DNA of 63,918 nt, counting the filler, from Candidatus Fermentibacterota bacterium (GTDB taxonomy: Bacteria > JAFGKV01), in NCBI GenBank assembly GCA_016928395.1. It is 7 parts of 7 records of this genome, joined end to end, with 100 filler letters (N's around TTAATTAATTAA, not from the genome) between each part and the next. Parts side by side here need not be neighbours in the genome. Positions count along the whole stretch, not along the records: positions 1 to 13,001 come from JAFGKV010000024.1; 6 more parts are not named here. The stretch is one strand, 5' to 3'. The first letter of the stretch is position 1; every line of letters begins with the position of its first letter. This document shows, piece after piece, positions 1 through 63,918 of the stretch. Position numbers and translations under genes: made by a program. Below the pieces are notes generated by a model. That model was given only the letters and a program-made list of their open reading frames with translations, was not told the DNA's origin and did no database searches.

Positions 1-42
1 CTCTGGATGCGAGAGCACCCAGGTTTCTCAAGGGTGAGAGGG

Positions 43-127
43 CGGCTGTCAGCTATCGGCCCTCAGCTCACTCCTATCTCCTCACTCCTCACTCCTCACT
101 CAGGGTCGCTATCGGTATCGCTCTCGA
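43..127. repeat. Mosaic of short tandem repeats (GCTRTCR, CTCACTC and TATCGS units)
   Basis: cggctgtcagctatcggccctcagct (43-68) recurs 25/26 identical at 63705-63730. The CTCACTC run recurs inverted near 39042 and 39241-39270. gggtcgctatcggt recurs near 16766. Confidence 0.8.
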
Positions 128-207
128 GAGGCGTACCTCCGAGTACCAGTGCGTGGATATACTCTCAAACAAGTGGGGGCCCCGGGCCAGCCCGGACGAT
201 ACGTGGT

Positions 208-420
208 GCAACTTCCGGTGCCGCGGCGGGAAGTTACAGCGTAGCCGCGGCCCCGGAAGTTGCCCTGCTCATACATAGGGAAACTTCTGAGCCTCTTACG
301 AAAGCCTGGTGGCGTCGCGGTCGGGACGAAGCCGCAGCATCCAGTGGTGCTGGGCCAAGCCCGACCCATCAGAGCGACCAGGGGACAGGGTATCTTTCCC
401 GAATGGAGGGACGACCTCTG
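208..420 (+). ncRNA. Putative structured non-coding element resembling an IS110-family upstream non-coding end (bridge/seek RNA-like), transposase absent
   Basis: 19/20-bp hairpin at 208-263. Nested stems cctggt/accagg (305-382), ggtcggg/cccgacc and cagcatc/ggtgctg are separated by internal loops. Ends in an SD-like GGAGGG with no credible ORF after it. Confidence 0.35.
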
Positions 421-1038
421 CGTCGTCCGTAGCGTTTCGCACGAGGCTATTCTGATGAAGCTACGGGGTAGATTGGCCGAAGAAGAGCCATTGCGAAAGG
501 ACGTTGGCATCTACATTGATCACCTGTATTCGGATCTGGCTTCCACAGACTTTCCCGAGAACCCTCCAATCGCCGGTAGAGCGGGAGAAGGCTGAAGGGT
601 CAGGATCGAATCCTGGGAGGTGGGCCTCGGAATCGCGGGGTTCGCGGATTGGGGCGCATCGACGGTCTTCTGGAACTGTGCAAGATCCGATTGAGACCAT
701 CATGGCACCCTGGTGAAAGGTGGCTCGCGGGGCAGGAACGGCATCACTCCCCCAAGACACACGGGCGCGAGGGCATCGCGCCCGTTGAGAGACGACTCTC
801 ACCTTGGTGCTCGCTCAGAAACAACTTCACATTCTCGCATCACATCTTCACCACATCTGTGTGCCTCGCCTCGATCGCGAAATCCTCGACGTAGCTTGGG
901 CTACGCCTCCGGTCTCGCTCCCTCGGCGAAACCCAATCCGCGGCAAATCTGTGCGCCAGAACTGCGAACTTATTCTCGCGCGAACCCTTAGGCGGAGCGC
1001 TCGCCGATCCCCGATGTCGGAATCGACGAGCGCACCAA

Positions 1039-1413
1039 TCATCTGCTCTGCTGTTCCCAGTAGGGCTTCTGCCCGTAGTACTTGTGTACCTGACCGCCCC
1101 AAGTCTGGTCCGCGAAATCCGGCCACGTGTCCTTCTTGTCAAAGCCTGGAGCGGCCTCAAGCTTCTTCTTGTCCACATCGAGAATGAGCTTCTTCTCGGT
1201 GTTGGCGAACTCAAGTGCGCTCCAAGGTATGGCAAAATACTTGCCGCTGAAGGAGAGAACCGCATAGGCCACGCGTCCCTCCTTGGCATCGATCATGAGC
1301 TCGTCGATCTTCCCCAGTTTCTCGTCCTTGCGATTGACTACATCCTCCCCCTTGATCGTCGATGCCGACACGATACCGTACTTTTCCTGCACCTGCCTGG
1401 TTGCTACTGCCAT
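1039..1413 (-). CDS. PRC-barrel domain protein
   Basis: SASTIKGEDVVN..EKLGKIDELMID..GRVAYAVLSF..FAIPW motif; SD AGGGAG before ATG 1413. Confidence 0.9.
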   Translation of the reverse strand: MAVATRQVQEKYGIVSASTIKGEDVVNRKDEKLGKIDELMIDAKEGRVAYAVLSFSGKYFAIPWSALEFANTEKKLILDVDKKKLEAAPGFDKKDTWPDFADQTWGGQVHKYYGQKPYWEQQSR

Positions 1414-1481
1414 ACCGTACTCCCTTCTCTCTTTCATTATGTGAGCCATTGCTCACGACTTCAGAACACTGCCCAATCAAC

Positions 1482-1860: not shown

Positions 1861-2059
1861 TTATGCAGTCGTGCATAGTCACGGCCTTGCCCCGGCGCTT
1901 GACCCGAATCCCGGTTGTCCCGGGGACATCTCATCCTGTGATCTTTCGTGAGGAGGAAGGTCCTGATAGGTGCTTCCTGCTGCTCTCGTACCCCACACGT
2001 TCTACCAGACGGAGCCGGCAGTCGCACCGTGCCAAATCTACCATCGCCATGAGGCTGGA

Positions 2060-3817
2060 ATGAGCCAACGCCCAACAATCCTTCTCCTCCTGCAACTAGC
2101 CTTAGCAGCTTGCCATGTCGGGGTCTCCGCGGAGCACGTCGAGTCTATTGCGGGCCCGGAACCGGATTCGGCCGAGGTCGAGCGGAGCGAGCGCGACCCT
2201 GTCCTGGAGCGGAGCGACCTGAAGTTCATCGACTATGCGGGAAAACACATCCGGAGAATGCGGATCAGGAAGCTCGACGTGTTCGGCCCGTCGGTTGACG
2301 ATACCTCCCGAGAGACGCTGTCACGGCCGGAGAGCCTCCTCAATCACCTGAACTTCCAGACCCGCGAGACCACCATTCGCCGAACCCTCCTCTTCAGGGA
2401 GGGGGACGCCATCGATCCCTTCCGTCTGGCCGACAGCGAGCGCATCCTCAGGAAGCTGGGATTCATCGGAGATGCCCGGATCGATGTAGCGTTGATTCCC
2501 GGCAGCGTCGATTCTGTCGATGTGCAGGTGATCGTGAAGGAAGCATGGACCCTCAGACTCTCAGGCAGCCTGAAAGAGGGAAACCGCCTGGGAGCCGGCC
2601 TGACCGAGCAGAACCTGCTCGGGCTGGGGCACCAGGTTTCCATGGCGGCCACGCTGACCCCCCACGCCACCCCCAGGTTAGGATTCGACACGGACTATTC
2701 CGTGCAAAACATCCACGGCTCGTTCATCACTGGAAAGCTGAAGTACGTGAGAGTGCCTGAGGAAGAAACGGCGGGTCTTGCATTCTCCCGTGAGCTTGTC
2801 TCGCCTATCCTCAGGTATGTCGGAGGGTTGGACCTCAGAAGGACCTCGACCACGGTACCGGATTCACTGCCTTCCGCAGCCGATAACACCTACGGACTGG
2901 TCGATCTATGGGCGGGACGACCTGTTCACCAATGGCACATTCAAAGGGAGCCGGGGCGTCGCGGCATTCTATTTCTCTCGGGCCGCCTCCGGCGTCTCAG
3001 GTTCACCAGACGCCCGCCGGTCACGCCGTCTACCTTCTATCAGTATCGCAACATGGAACACGTTCTGGGAAGCGTCACCTACATCCAGAGCTGGTACTAC
3101 CGCGCGAATCTCCTGTACAACTTCGGCCGGACGGAGGATATCCCCTATGGTCTCCTCGCCCGCGTCACGTACGGATTGGCCGATGAGGAGTTCACCCGGA
3201 CTCATTATGCATCCGCCACGTTGGCGGCGGGAGAGAGGATCAGCGGGCTGGGCTACGGGATCGGCGAGCTGCGAATCGGCGGCAATCCGAGAGGCGGGGA
3301 GATCGAGCACGGAGTAATCAGACTGCGAACCCTTTACTTCAGCAGGCTTCTGCAGGTCGGAGGGTTCCGGTTCCGTCAGTTCATCAACGCGGAATACACC
3401 GCCGGGATCCACCGCTTCGCAGACGACAGCATCGATTTCTACGGCGATGAGAGCATCCGGGGCGTGGTCTATAACAGCGATGTGGCCGGAAGCAAGCGCC
3501 TCCAACTCAACCTTGAAACAGTTGCGTTCACCCCCTGGAGGGCGCAAGGAGTCACCTTCGCGTTCTTCACCTTCGCAGACCTGGACTTCATCGGCTCCGG
3601 ACGCAGGAGCATCCTCGCGCAAGATTGCTACTCGGGCCTGGGGCTGGGGGTCCGGTTGCACAAGGATGGTTTCGGGATCGGGCCGGTGCAACTGCGCTTC
3701 GCCTGGTATCCGAGACTCCCGATTGACCATGACGCGTACTCCTGCGCCGCATTTGGAGAGAAGCGCTTCAGGTCGATCGAGCTCCTGGGGATCCGCCCGG
3801 AGATCGTGGAACACTGA
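2060..3817 (+). CDS. Outer-membrane beta-barrel protein with N-terminal POTRA (BamA/TamA-like)
   Basis: Signal peptide; TRETTIRRTLLFREGD..LADSERILRKLGFIGDARI POTRA motif; EQNLLGLGH; C-terminal GLGLGVRL beta strands. Confidence 0.75.
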   Translation: MSQRPTILLLLQLALAACHVGVSAEHVESIAGPEPDSAEVERSERDPVLERSDLKFIDYAGKHIRRMRIRKLDVFGPSVDDTSRETLSRPESLLNHLNFQTRETTIRRTLLFREGDAIDPFRLADSERILRKLGFIGDARIDVALIPGSVDSVDVQVIVKEAWTLRLSGSLKEGNRLGAGLTEQNLLGLGHQVSMAATLTPHATPRLGFDTDYSVQNIHGSFITGKLKYVRVPEEETAGLAFSRELVSPILRYVGGLDLRRTSTTVPDSLPSAADNTYGLVDLWAGRPVHQWHIQREPGRRGILFLSGRLRRLRFTRRPPVTPSTFYQYRNMEHVLGSVTYIQSWYYRANLLYNFGRTEDIPYGLLARVTYGLADEEFTRTHYASATLAAGERISGLGYGIGELRIGGNPRGGEIEHGVIRLRTLYFSRLLQVGGFRFRQFINAEYTAGIHRFADDSIDFYGDESIRGVVYNSDVAGSKRLQLNLETVAFTPWRAQGVTFAFFTFADLDFIGSGRRSILAQDCYSGLGLGVRLHKDGFGIGPVQLRFAWYPRLPIDHDAYSCAAFGEKRFRSIELLGIRPEIVEH

Positions 3818-12739: not shown

Positions 12740-12776
12740 GTAGGAGCGTCGCGTGGTCCCGCACCTGAAGATGCGG
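12740..12776. repeat. Degenerate GTAG-type REP with mini-hairpin insert
   Basis: GTAGGAGCG..TGGTCCCGCACC....GATGCGG, similar to 46571-46610. Confidence 0.55.
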
Positions 12777-13001
12777 CAAGAGGCGCGCCTCGGAGACGGG
12801 CATGGGATGTAGGGGCGCCCACGCTGCTCGCACGTAACGCTTCAGCGCACAGAAGAGAGGCGAAAGAGGGATCACGACACGAGGGAATCATAAGAACCAC
12901 CGAGCCTCACGGCACTATTCTGCTTCGTAAATACGTGAACAGCCGGTGCTCCCGACGCTCCTCGATGGCTTGCAGTGCAAGCTGCAGCGCCATTTTCATC
13001 C

Positions 13002-16517: not shown

Positions 16518-16637
16518 CGGACGCCCGCGTTTCCATACGCAACCCGGGTCGTGCGGTTCGACGTTCAGTCGGGCCTCTGAGGGCGCGGGGCGCACTCAGA
16601 TTCTTGGAGGATGAGAGTACGGCGCGGCGGCTTCTCT

Positions 16638-16721
16638 GTAGGAGCCCCGCATCCAGCGGTGCGGGGGCACCCGGCTTCAGCCGCAACACGCCACCCCTGT
16701 CGGGCCTGAAGGCCCTCCTAC
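16638..16721. repeat. GTAG-type REP doublet (REPIN-like) with inserted 22-bp hairpin
   Basis: GTAGGAGC[CCCGCATCCAGCGGTGCGGGG..]CGGCTTCAGCCGC ... GGGCCTGAAGGCCCTCCTAC. Confidence 0.75.
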
Positions 16722-16760
16722 TCTGTCCGTGCTCGCCCCTCGTCGCCCACCGGCGAGAGA

Positions 16761-16855
16761 GCTCGGGGTCGCTATCGGTGTCGTAATCGTAATCGCAGTC
16801 GACGAGCTGGGGTAGTCGAGCGCGTCTACGAGCTTTGCATGTTCTCTCACACAAG
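16761..16855. repeat. Dispersed ~100-bp intergenic element (inverted copy at 39106-39223)
   Basis: 27-bp exact core CGAGCTTTGCATGTTCTCTCACACAAG plus a hexamer array (TATCGG/AATCGT). Confidence 0.85.
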
Positions 16856-16907
16856 TCGTCGGTCAAGGGATGGTGACAATCGCCAAGCCGCGGGGAGAAC
16901 CGGCTGC

Positions 16908-25199: not shown

Positions 25200-25299
25200 N
25201 NNNNNNNNNNNNNNNNNNNNNNNNNNNNNNNNNNNNNNNNNNNTTAATTAATTAANNNNNNNNNNNNNNNNNNNNNNNNNNNNNNNNNNNNNNNNNNNN
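25200..25299. other. Artificial contig spacer
   Basis: N run containing TTAATTAATTAA. Confidence 0.99.
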
Positions 25300-38167: not shown

Positions 38168-38267
38168 NNNNNNNNNNNNNNNNNNNNNNNNNNNNNNNNN
38201 NNNNNNNNNNNTTAATTAATTAANNNNNNNNNNNNNNNNNNNNNNNNNNNNNNNNNNNNNNNNNNNN
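38168..38267. other. Artificial contig spacer
   Basis: N run containing TTAATTAATTAA. Confidence 0.99.
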
Positions 38268-39006: not shown

Positions 39007-39041
39007 ACCGGGCTGCCGGGTGACTCGACCGCTTCCCCCGG

Positions 39042-39360
39042 GAGAGGAGTGAGGAGTGTGGAGATAGCACGACTGCCTGAACCCTTCAACCCTGAGCCCT
39101 GAACCCTTGTGTGAGAGAACATGCAAAGCTCGCACACGTGCTTGTACCCGTACTCGTGCTCGAATGCCCGGCTCGTCGATTACGATTACGACAACGATAG
39201 CGATACCGATACCGACCCCGAGCCGGCGGGCGGCAACAGAGTTAGGAGATAGGAATGAGGAGTGAGGAGAGGCGGCAGAGGCCCGACTGAACCCTGAACC
39301 CTGAATCCTGCTCGCAGAGCGAGCTGAACCCTGGACCCTGCTCGCAGAGCGAGCTGAACG
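39042..39360. repeat. Composite repeat region: heptamer runs, dispersed element (39106-39223) and a 23-bp direct repeat with hairpin
   Basis: CCCTGAA runs; CCTGCTCGCAGAGCGAGCTGAAC at 39307 and 39337; inverted match to 16761-16855. Confidence 0.85.
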
Positions 39361-41770: not shown

Positions 41771-41870
41771 NNNNNNNNNNNNNNNNNNNNNNNNNNNNNN
41801 NNNNNNNNNNNNNNTTAATTAATTAANNNNNNNNNNNNNNNNNNNNNNNNNNNNNNNNNNNNNNNNNNNN
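41771..41870. other. Artificial contig spacer
   Basis: N run containing TTAATTAATTAA. Confidence 0.99.
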
Positions 41871-44622: not shown

Positions 44623-44722
44623 NNNNNNNNNNNNNNNNNNNNNNNNNNNNNNNNNNNNNNNNNNNNTTAATTAATTAANNNNNNNNNNNNNNNNNNNNNN
44701 NNNNNNNNNNNNNNNNNNNNNN
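44623..44722. other. Artificial contig spacer
   Basis: N run containing TTAATTAATTAA. Confidence 0.99.
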
Positions 44723-44823: not shown

Positions 44824-46494
44824 CTACCGCTGGGTCACCAGCCGGTAGCGGGTCCATCGGGCGCTGCCTTCACGCTCCAGCACGCCGTAGCGATGGAGTT
44901 TCTTCAGGAGGTAGGAAGCCCGGTGCAGGTCAACGCCCAGCAGATCGCGACACTCGGCATTGTCCACGCTGCCGTGCGTTCTCAAGTATGCCAGCACTCG
45001 TTCTTCGTCGGCCACTACGCCATCGAGCGATGTCTCGCGTTGCGGCCCCGTGGTGTCGGAGTGACCTCGGGCCCGCTGAATCACGAGTTGCCACACACGA
45101 TCGTTCTCCGAAGTGCCCTCGGATGCCGACACAGTGGCCACCGCCGCGGCACGCCCCATGGCCGGGCCCAGATGCTCGGTCCCGATCTCTGTGCCACGGC
45201 CTCGGAGCACGGCATATTCGATGATGTTCTTCAACTCGCGCACATTGCCGGGGAATGGGTACCTCTCAAGGAGCTGAAGGGCTTCAGGATCCATGGTGGG
45301 TGTGGCAAGCCCCATGTCCGCGGCAAACAGCGTCAAGAAATGGTCGACAAGGAGTGGGATGTCTTCCCGGCGGTCCCGCAAGGGGGGAACCTTGACCGTG
45401 AAACGGGCCAGGCGATAGTAGAGGTCGTTTCGGAAGAGCCCCTGTGCCATTCGGGCCCGAAGATCCTGGTTTGTCGCTGCCACGACTCGCACATCGATCG
45501 TCTGTTCGCGGGTACTCCCCACCGGCGTAATGCACGCCGACTCCAGCGCCCGAAGCAGCTTGGCCTGCAAGGCCACATCCATGTCGCCGATCTCATCCAG
45601 GAACAGCGTGCCGCCATGGGCCAGTTCGAAGTAGCCCCTGTGCGAGGCATGCGCCCCCGTGAAGGCGCCCCGGGCATGACCGAAGAAGATCGACTCGGCC
45701 AACTCCTTGGGAACGGCCGAGCAGTTCACCGTCACGAACGGCCCACCTGACCGCGGTCCACCAAAATGGATGGCCCTGGCAACCAGTTCCTTGCCGGTGC
45801 CGCTCTCACCTGTGATCAATACCGCGGTCTTCTCTGCAGTCTGCACCGCGCGTACATCATCCAGGATCCTTTTCACCGTGGTGCTCCTGCCGATGAACCC
45901 CTCGATACCCCAGCGTTCGCCCTCCTGGCGGGCAAGTAGCGCGAGGCGGTCGTCAGCAAGCTGAACGGCCTCCTCAGCATCCCGGCGTTTCGCCATCTCC
46001 TCCCGGAGTTGGTCATTGGCTTCCTGCAGCTGCCGGTTGGCGTGGGCCAGGTCCGCGGCGCGCTCCTCCAGCTCCTGATTGCGCTCAGTGAGCGCCCGGG
46101 AGAGGCGCGCGATCTGGAGGTGTGTCCGCACCCGGAGCAGGATCTCCTCTTTCTCGAAGGGCTTGCCGACATAGTCGACCCCACCGGCTTCAAACCCGCG
46201 GATCAGGCTCTCCTTGTCCTCCTGCACCGTCACGAAGATCACGGGGATCTGACGCGTGGTTTCATCCGCCTTCAGTGCACGGCAGACCTCGTATCCGTCC
46301 ATGCCGGGCATGACGACGTCCAGCAACACCAGGTCAGGCAGCGCTCCCCGAGCGATCCTCAGTGCGGCTGGCCCGTCCGACGCACCCAAGATGCTGAATC
46401 CCTCGGGTTCCAGCACATCCCGTAGGATCTTGAGATTCGCGGGGACATCGTCGACGATCAAGACGTGGGGACCATTGCCGTTCTGTCTAGCCAT
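44824..46494 (-). CDS. sigma54 activator: REC - coiled coil - AAA+ - C-terminal winged helix
   Basis: LLDVVMP, GESGTGKE, GAFTGA; C-terminus EERVLAYLRTHGSVDNAECRDLLG..LEREGSARWTRY. Confidence 0.9.
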   Translation of the reverse strand: MARQNGNGPHVLIVDDVPANLKILRDVLEPEGFSILGASDGPAALRIARGALPDLVLLDVVMPGMDGYEVCRALKADETTRQIPVIFVTVQEDKESLIRGFEAGGVDYVGKPFEKEEILLRVRTHLQIARLSRALTERNQELEERAADLAHANRQLQEANDQLREEMAKRRDAEEAVQLADDRLALLARQEGERWGIEGFIGRSTTVKRILDDVRAVQTAEKTAVLITGESGTGKELVARAIHFGGPRSGGPFVTVNCSAVPKELAESIFFGHARGAFTGAHASHRGYFELAHGGTLFLDEIGDMDVALQAKLLRALESACITPVGSTREQTIDVRVVAATNQDLRARMAQGLFRNDLYYRLARFTVKVPPLRDRREDIPLLVDHFLTLFAADMGLATPTMDPEALQLLERYPFPGNVRELKNIIEYAVLRGRGTEIGTEHLGPAMGRAAAVATVSASEGTSENDRVWQLVIQRARGHSDTTGPQRETSLDGVVADEERVLAYLRTHGSVDNAECRDLLGVDLHRASYLLKKLHRYGVLEREGSARWTRYRLVTQR

Positions 46495-46745
46495 GACTGG
46501 TCATCCTTGGCAACCCCGGGGGCTCCACCGGCCCGCCTCACGCCTGAGGGACATGTATGCCCATGCAGATGTAGGAGCGGCTCTTGGTCCCGCACCGCCG
46601 GATGCGGGGTCAGCCGCGAACGTGCCGGGTCCGAAGGCCCTCCTACGCTCGATCGGCGATCCTAAGCACATGGCACACACCCGGCCAACTTCCGGTGCTG
46701 ATCGAGTTCTCCCGTAGGGATGTCCGGCGTTCTGTCTAGCCATGA
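46479..46745. repeat. 18-bp direct repeat (46479-46496 and 46728-46745) flanking a REP doublet (46571-46646)
   Basis: CGTTCTGTCTAGCCATGA twice; GTAGGAGCGGCT[insert]CAGCCGCGAA..GAAGGCCCTCCTAC. Confidence 0.85.
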
Positions 46746-60255: not shown

Positions 60256-60355
60256 NNNNNNNNNNNNNNNNNNNNNNNNNNNNNNNNNNNNNNNNNNNNT
60301 TAATTAATTAANNNNNNNNNNNNNNNNNNNNNNNNNNNNNNNNNNNNNNNNNNNN
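60256..60355. other. Artificial contig spacer
   Basis: N run containing TTAATTAATTAA. Confidence 0.99.
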
Positions 60356-63524: not shown

Positions 63525-63699
63525 GGCTCCTCCCCTTCGAAACAGAGTCTCGAAACAACCATCCGTCGGTGGTACGGCACGACATACGTTCAGCCATGGC
63601 TCACGACGATAGGTTTGAACCCCCCGCAGACAAGTAGGGGCATATCCTCCCGAACACAAGATGGGCACGCTGGGAGTCAATGAGTACGGCCGGCAGGTG

Positions 63700-63897
63700 G
63701 CTATCGGCTGTCAGCTGTCGGCCCTCAGCTATCAGGCCCGCCCAACGCTACGAGAAACCGTTGCCTCGTACGGGCGACCGTCCCTGGTCGCCCGCCGGGA
63801 TCGGGGTCGGCTGCACGGGCGGGCACAGAGTCCCGCCCCTACGGAACTTTGCACGGCACCGTTGCCTCGAACGGGCGACCGTCCCTCGTCGCCCGCC
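63700..63897. repeat. Heptamer repeats plus REP-like palindromes (40-bp direct repeat at 63757-63796 and 63858-63897)
   Basis: GGGCGACC..GTCGCCC hairpins, with CCCGCCCCTAC (GTAG-type) between them. Confidence 0.8.
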
Positions 63898-63918
63898 AGG
63901 GGCGGGGCTCAGGGTCGC

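Follow-up and report, generated by a model that had tools for sequence, protein, structure and literature searches.

The DNA analysed here, called the window throughout, is a stretch of 63,918 nt from the metagenome-assembled genome (MAG) of a Candidatus Fermentibacterota bacterium, in which seven contigs are joined by six linkers of 100 nt, each made of N's around a central TTAATTAATTAA (Table 1). Because the contigs were joined artificially, distances and repeats that span linkers are not genomic. The feature under study lies 208 nt into contig 1 and is carried by two adjoining modules, A and B, preceded by a low-complexity module, M1; only 244 nt of the contig lie to the left of B. To the right, the nearest real gene encodes a PRC-barrel protein, and beyond it lies a gene for a POTRA-domain outer-membrane protein (1970-3817; product of 615 aa). 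The PRC-barrel gene and its upstream region (1039-1500) have a G+C content of 0.51-0.57, compared with about 0.60-0.64 elsewhere in the contig, and nothing corresponding to the 1 kb left of the gene is present in either of the two nearest reference loci. Two further palindromes, at 761-785 and 994-1036, lie in this unique non-coding stretch; the second is just past the PRC-barrel stop codon and may be the terminator of that gene. No tRNA or tmRNA was found.

Table 1. Positions of linkers, repeat modules, predicted structures and reading frames in the window.
Feature	Position	Strand	Description
Linkers, N with central TTAATTAATTAA	13002-13101, 25200-25299, 38168-38267, 41771-41870, 44623-44722, 60256-60355		
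Module M1, low-complexity mosaic repeat	1-126		Five CTCACTC copies, GGGTCGCTATCGGT motif, related copies
Module A, high-copy repeat	127-244		Core 162-244; ends GTAG; depth 630-920 in metagenome run X1
Near-perfect hairpin	208-263		19 of 20 pairs, 16-nt loop; spans the A/B junction
CGTAGC, left border of B	240-245		Inverted partner of GCTACG at 460-465
Module B, structured interspersed repeat	245-460	+ (tentative)	About 215 nt; from depth and differing flanks
Long imperfect hairpin	305-382	+	Two small internal loops; from RNA fold
7-bp hairpin	409-428	+	GTAG directly after; z -2.1 (+), -2.9 (-)
Doubtful 46-codon ORF	455-595	+	Starts 6 nt before the right border of B; GAGG 8 nt upstream
GCTACG, right border of B	460-465		Inverted partner of CGTAGC at 240-245
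PRC-barrel gene, nearest real gene	1039-1449	-	PF05239, E 1.5e-16; 3' end about 580 nt from B

Module B is non-coding. [quoted passage not shown] An earlier interpretation made without database searches (the sequence-only reading) had taken the feature for a non-coding region followed by no transposase, and in both respects it was right. It had also pointed to a Shine-Dalgarno-like GGAGGG followed by CTG in the place of a start codon. Both motifs are present, at 405-410 and 418-420; GGAGGG overlaps the 5' arm of the 7-bp hairpin, CTG lies in its loop, and the reading frame that CTG would open meets TAG after four codons. The ORF at 455-595 is probably not a gene: a search for longer protein homologues at E up to 0.1 returned none, which is weak evidence, its GC3 is about 0.54 by hand count, and the ORF that encloses it has no Pfam match.

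The near-perfect 20-bp hairpin described earlier at 208-263 was confirmed. Its arms (208-227 and 244-263, 20 nt each) are 95% complementary, and the RNA fold of 205-266, at -43.6 kcal/mol, has z-scores of -5.90 on the plus and -6.16 on the minus strand; as single-stranded DNA the hairpin has a z-score of -6.58, and in each case none of 200 shuffles was as good. For the region 305-382 the sequence-only reading had described a multi-stem fold with two internal loops, of which the loops are found while the several stems are not: the minimum-free-energy prediction, made from a single sequence, is one long imperfect hairpin of about 30 pairs with single-base bulges and internal loops at 317-318/367-371 (2x5 nt) and 326,328-330/356-358 (about 4x3 nt). 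As RNA this hairpin has a predicted energy of -46.5 kcal/mol with a z-score of -4.30 on the plus and -3.16 on the minus strand (0/200 shuffles each), and as single-stranded DNA a z-score of -2.09 (5/200 shuffles as good). It thus stands out more as plus-strand RNA than as single-stranded DNA or minus-strand RNA, which leaves room for a function at the RNA level, and the better RNA fold hints at the plus strand for B as a whole. Taken entire, 264-470 is marginal when compared with shuffles (z -1.59 on the plus strand, 13/200; z -2.36 on the minus strand, 5/200), and the predicted folds show imperfect pairing of about 285-306 with 432-460.

The repeat status of the locus was read from contigs of three sediment metagenome runs. 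X1, which contains 88% of the words sampled from 1-1100, is the probable source of the genome; X2 and X3 come from other studies and contain small shares of these words. Contigs were placed on 1-1500 at 80% likeness or more, and 27 of the 247 resulting pieces were listed. Summed depth adds all matching contigs and is not a copy number in this genome, because contigs of other organisms are included. In X1 it is flat at 15.3 over the unique flank (551-800 and 1051-1500, slightly higher in the interval that separates them), and it reaches 89 over 451-500, 110-145 over 251-450, 630-920 over 151-250 and 3570 over 51-100, so that 1-460 lies 6 to over 200 times above the unique flank. The extra depth over 451-500 suggests that some copies run past 460.

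Individual contigs point the same way. A piece of 81 nt from X1 is identical to 376-456 and has a depth of 67.3, and a unique X1 contig of 12,512 nt covers the window from 431 onward. Among the pieces listed, contigs match 340-449 and 370-460 and then differ from the window, giving at least three different right flanks, this one included. On the left, contigs begin to match at 243 (X1) and 249 (X3) after unlike sequence. Since the flanks differ, B is an interspersed repeat. Pieces in X2 and X3 are 90-99% identical; X3 contains 305-389 with three changes and X2 contains 403-460 with one. The borders of B were read from the ends of contig matches, where no full other copy was seen, and are accurate to within a few bases; within the 64 kb of the window there is no second copy. 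B is present in multiple copies with different flanks and is one part of a mosaic, and the proposal that the feature is an orphan, single-copy RNA is refuted by the raised depth and by other contigs that carry 245-460 in different surroundings.

The junction of A and B at 244/245 separates the loop of the 208-263 hairpin from its right arm, so that A supplies the left arm and the loop and B the right arm. Most copies of A end at 244 among the pieces listed, and because the junction precedes the right arm, most copies of A lack that arm. Also among the pieces listed, contigs of X1 and X3 match 162-244 or 160-244 before diverging, an X1 contig of 6028 nt bears 162-244 alone and two X3 contigs stop matching at 244 and 246. 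The joint between A and B is not unique to this assembly, because at least one further contig covers 217-326. In a single X3 contig 126 is followed immediately by 264, a weak observation at a depth of 3 and with a shorter side of 25 nt. Four X1 contigs, with 32.9 of 43.9 depth units, have GC instead of AA at 257-258, which would open two pairs of the hairpin unless the left arm changes too.

The inverted arms that border B (235-245 and 460-470) are 82% complementary, and the AG at 243-244 is repeated as AG at 459-460, bracketing the module. Were B removed, the flanks would read CGTAGCTACG (CGTAG/CTACG), a perfect palindrome of 10 nt. No empty site of this kind was found in the window, where five matches with two mismatches compare with 4.0 expected. 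B has neither a clear terminal inverted repeat longer than 6 nt nor a target duplication longer than AG.

Related repeats lie elsewhere in the window. The apex of the 305-382 hairpin, GCATCCAGTGGTGC, has an exact match at 16649 (one position being read as either C or T) and a match with a single mismatch at 46592. Both matches are inside elements that start with GTAGGAGC and end with CTCCTAC (16638-16721 and 46571-46646) and that make up under 0.5% of the window in total. B and these elements differ in both bases of one stem pair, A-T versus C-G. As single-stranded DNA the elements fold modestly better than shuffles (z -1.8 and -1.9), and they look like paired GTAG-tagged repetitive extragenic palindromic (REP) sequences, in the manner of REPINs. 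They enclose CCCGCA...TGCGGG hairpins, and the first half only of such an element lies at 12740-12787. The 13-mer CAACTTCCGGTGC of the hairpin arm in module A recurs at 46686. The sigma-54 response-regulator gene (44824-46494, minus strand) has its initial 33 nt duplicated 249 nt upstream; the pair, 46464-46496 and 46713-46745, has a REP-like element in between and suggests a small partial gene duplication.

Module M1 has relatives as well: 8-126 resembles 39195-39316, 43-68 resembles 63705-63730, 99-120 resembles 16762-16783, and a further related copy lies at 39036-39067. The clusters at 16620-16860, 39030-39360 and 63680-63918 share a common order of motifs, and the first of these has no match in ten genomes of the phylum of the nearest reference. 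A composite intergenic repeat, running from GGGTCGCTATCGGT through TAATCG-type short repeats to GAGCTTTGCATGTTCTCTCACACAAG, occupies 16740-16856 and, inverted, 39106-39215 with the same internal order at both sites, and 101-175 contains a diverged version of it. Two tandem 30-nt units, CTGAACCCTGAATCCTGCTCGCAGAGCGAG, 93% alike, adjoin the cluster 39030-39290 at 39294-39353. The five tandem CTCACTC units at 67-101, where X1 depth is 3570 and short metatranscriptome contigs also match, form a low-complexity array that is probably common to many organisms.

The start and end regions of contig 1 and the end of the last contig are within related repeat clusters, and the last contig terminates inside a motif of the cluster 63680-63918. 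That cluster includes a 50-nt direct repeat (63757-63806 and 63858-63907, 90% identity) with a GGGCGACC...GGTCGCCC hairpin in each copy; it stands at the very end of the last contig, and therefore that contig end, too, is within repeats. The mosaic repeat cluster probably broke the assembly at the contig edge.

A position at a contig edge also invites the view that B is the conserved end of something larger, such as a truncated or decayed insertion sequence, intron or prophage, or that 1-430 is a mis-joined chain of repeats. The feature is within 460 nt of the contig start, the sole long unique X1 contig among the pieces listed begins at 431, and the right end of B is its best-conserved part, as the ends of elements usually are. 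This reading is nonetheless considered unlikely: contigs that start at 243-249 bound B on the left and leave a unit of about 215 nt, 1-1038 contains no transposase-like coding, Rfam returned no group II intron and no known RNA linked to insertion sequences, and the contig spanning 217-326 shows that the A-B joint is not a product of one assembly. A separate candidate, a group II intron 5' end (GTGCG on the minus strand at 442) picked out by eye, was rejected; it has no Rfam match and the remainder of the sequence is other repeats.

Relatives of the feature were sought in DNA and as structure. By the POTRA protein, the nearest loci are in a MAG labelled Gemmatimonadetes (G001; 69% identity) and a Candidatus Eisenbacteria MAG (G002; 61%), and the DNA upstream of both POTRA loci is unrelated to that of the window. 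With 150-470 or 200-440 as queries, the best match in these two genomes had an E of 0.2, and no homologue was found in 307 distinct related genomes (101, including ten of the phylum of G001, and 206). The 101 relatives of G001 gave three short DNA matches, the best of them 26 nt inside a coding region that, judged by eye, resembles nusG; the ten genomes of its phylum returned this 26-nt match and nothing new, and the 206 genomes of the phylum of G002 gave no DNA match. Plasmids and phages had no match by blastn, and metagenome and viral contig collections had no exact-pattern match. A covariance model of 300-432 (R1; 38 pairs) found itself alone in the window, and its best hit in the 101 relatives, at an E of 0.08, was treated as chance. 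Rfam gave no match at the gathering score across the window. At E up to 1 on 1-1100 its sole match, of 499-598 to a mammalian lncRNA family (12.6 bits against a threshold of 70 bits), was dismissed as chance.

The plus-strand fold raises the question of whether B is a multi-copy small RNA gene or a structured 5' leader shared by several genes, in which case 376-456, its most conserved part, would supply a ribosome-binding site and start codon. Such a role would suit several observations, namely that the 305-382 hairpin is most exceptional as plus-strand RNA, that the best-conserved segment ends at GAGG-N8-ATG (ATG at 455), 6 nt before the border, and that the variants listed inside the hairpin, at 358 and 370, are at unpaired loop positions. 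Against it, a scan of 1-2000 for promoters gave no sigma-70-like site, and of the three terminator-like sites in that interval none is in or beside 245-460, the nearest being at 177-193 on the minus strand. Rfam searched at E up to 1 on both strands of 1-1100 had nothing on the feature, the search with the 46-codon ORF gave no longer homologues and its GC3 is the low one given above, the sequence downstream is unrelated among copies of B, and the fold of the entire 264-470 is hardly better than that of shuffles. In one metatranscriptome, three contigs match 67-102 and 882-913 only, and none falls on 245-460. A gene or leader of this kind is therefore held to be improbable, to about the same degree as a larger element.

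Bridge or seek RNAs come from the non-coding end of an element, beside the gene for its DEDD (IS110) recombinase. The sequence-only reading had assigned the feature to this class, as the solo or non-autonomous end of an IS110 element that could act in trans as a guide, with the 208-263 hairpin as its possible target. IS110 genes are common in the phylum of G002, where PF01548 occurs in 49 of 121 genomes. Pfam was run on 28 ORFs of the window (25 of 53 ORF candidates, the PRC-barrel ORF and two short ORFs across the feature), and among these no DEDD/IS110 gene or any other transposase was found, and no RAYT gene, while housekeeping genes were seen. The comparison set comprised 30 IS110 loci: G001 supplied one, and the phylum of G002 supplied 30, of which 29 were used, a locus from an unpublished genome being left out. 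Their 152 ORFs of at least 200 aa had no tblastn match on the window; blastn of 127-470 against the loci gave nothing below an E of 0.6, and R1 had no match in them at E up to 10. Homologues preceding IS110 genes, as expected of such an end, were thus not found by either method in these 30 loci, although this is a weak test of homology, given that the loci belong to another phylum. Scanned with Rfam, 20 of these genuine IS110 loci yielded no bridge RNA, and its silence is therefore uninformative on bridge RNAs.

Structure and complementarity were compared as well. [quoted passage not shown] B has one hairpin instead of these three stem-loops, and its internal loops (2x5 and about 4x3 nt) are smaller than those described and too small for such guides. 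In ten comparisons of the interior of B with its own ends, its flanks and the hairpin, the longest complementarity was 5-7 nt; the best, the 7-mer CATCAGA against 451-457, was reached by 18 of 300 shuffles, and complementarity between loops and ends or flanks does not clearly exceed chance level. Against the 208-263 hairpin the longest was 6 nt, a value reached by 276 of 300 shuffles, and the hairpin is itself split by the A/B junction, so the idea that it is the target of the guide is not supported. What survives of the earlier assignment is a repeated, probably non-autonomous element beside palindromic repeats with no recombinase of its own; its identity as an IS110 bridge or seek RNA is not supported, there being no recombinase in the tested part of the window, no match to the 30 IS110 loci and a single small-looped hairpin. 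B gave no IS110 signal in anything that was tested.

A weaker form of the proposal is that B is mobilised by an IS110-family recombinase encoded elsewhere and yields either a small RNA or a bridge or seek RNA acting in trans. A parallel is provided by MITEPpu9 of Pseudomonas putida, in which the small RNA gene ssr9 forms a MITE-like unit with ISPpu9-like ends and AG at both borders; MITEPpu9 and ISPpu9 insert into REP/BIME palindromes, and three copies of ssr9 lie away from any transposase (PMC12288879). The AG at both ends of B and the CGTAG/CTACG flanks reproduce the ISPpu9 pattern formally, IS110 genes are frequent in a related phylum as noted above, and with just 244 nt of contig to the left of B a gene there is possible. 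Those 244 nt, however, are other repeats that are found independently elsewhere, the tested part of the window contains no IS110 gene, neither blastn nor R1 linked B to the 30 loci, and the predicted hairpin has neither the described architecture nor complementarity clearly above chance. A match of two bases at the borders is weak in itself, since many transposons would look similar. Mobilisation by an IS110-family enzyme is accordingly regarded as very unlikely, and slightly less credit still is given to its most specific version, in which B would be a mobile small RNA cassette of about 215 nt that an unlinked IS110-like or other RNA-guided recombinase inserts at the middle of the CGTAG/CTACG palindrome with an AG core and whose RNA would act in trans, either as a guide or as a regulator.

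[quoted passage not shown] Like MITEs it is a non-coding sequence of small size (about 215 nt) that occurs in multiple copies with different flanks, folds as a long stem-loop, has no enzyme of its own and lies among palindromic repeats; unlike them, it has an inverted match of only 6 nt at its borders, no clear target duplication and no known parent. It shares AG at both borders with the ends of ISPpu9 and MITEPpu9 (PMC12288879), within the few bases to which its borders are known, and no sequence similarity to the 30 IS110 loci was found. With bridge RNAs it has in common a structured non-coding stretch by a palindromic repeat and the same dinucleotide at both borders, and it differs in having no adjacent recombinase, with only 244 nt of contig on the left, and in its single hairpin.

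REP, REPIN and BIME repeats are thought to be mobilised by RAYT (Y1) transposases. The repeats here resemble them in being G+C-rich palindromes that form intergenic clusters and combine as modules in varying order, and the apex of the 305-382 hairpin is common to the GTAGGAGC-tagged elements of the same genome. REPs are described as palindromes of 20-40 bp with an unpaired GTAG or CGTC tag at the 5' end, and clusters lie downstream of genes (PMC3733652). The clusters here are likewise downstream of genes; the hairpins are longer, at 56 and 78 nt, and GTAG stands 3' of the palindromes (241-244 and 429-432) and not 5'. B further departs from REPs in its modest summed depth.

On balance, the feature is most probably, with some confidence, a copy of a lineage-specific, non-autonomous, MITE- or REP-like structured repeat of about 215 nt, namely module B. 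It abuts a second and more abundant palindromic repeat, A, both within a patchwork of repeats at the contig edge. The 20-bp hairpin is formed where A ends and B begins, and the 305-382 hairpin is the body of B, its apex a variant of the GTAG-tagged REP-like palindrome of the genome. We infer that B is mobile: an enzyme whose gene lies at another place in the genome may copy it to new sites, and it may prefer or create palindromic junctions, as the AG...AG and CGTAGC/GCTACG brackets would suggest. Any role at the RNA level may be exerted on the host through stable stem-loops in the read-through transcript of a neighbouring gene, where they could block exonucleases or terminate transcription.

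A strong hairpin and a looped stem beside a palindrome are not enough to call a bridge RNA, and where such features are met at the edge of a MAG contig, repeat DNA that interrupted the assembly is the likelier explanation. Were the mobile cassette described above to prove real, an uncultivated phylum would have an orphan guide-RNA element whose fold differs from that of known bridge RNAs. As a MITE- or REP-like repeat, B would add new structured interspersed repeats to a poorly known sediment lineage, none of which was found in the nearest references, related at 61-69% identity in one protein. If the junction of AG and palindrome is borne out by a complete genome, B would offer a tractable case in which to ask which enzyme moves such repeats.
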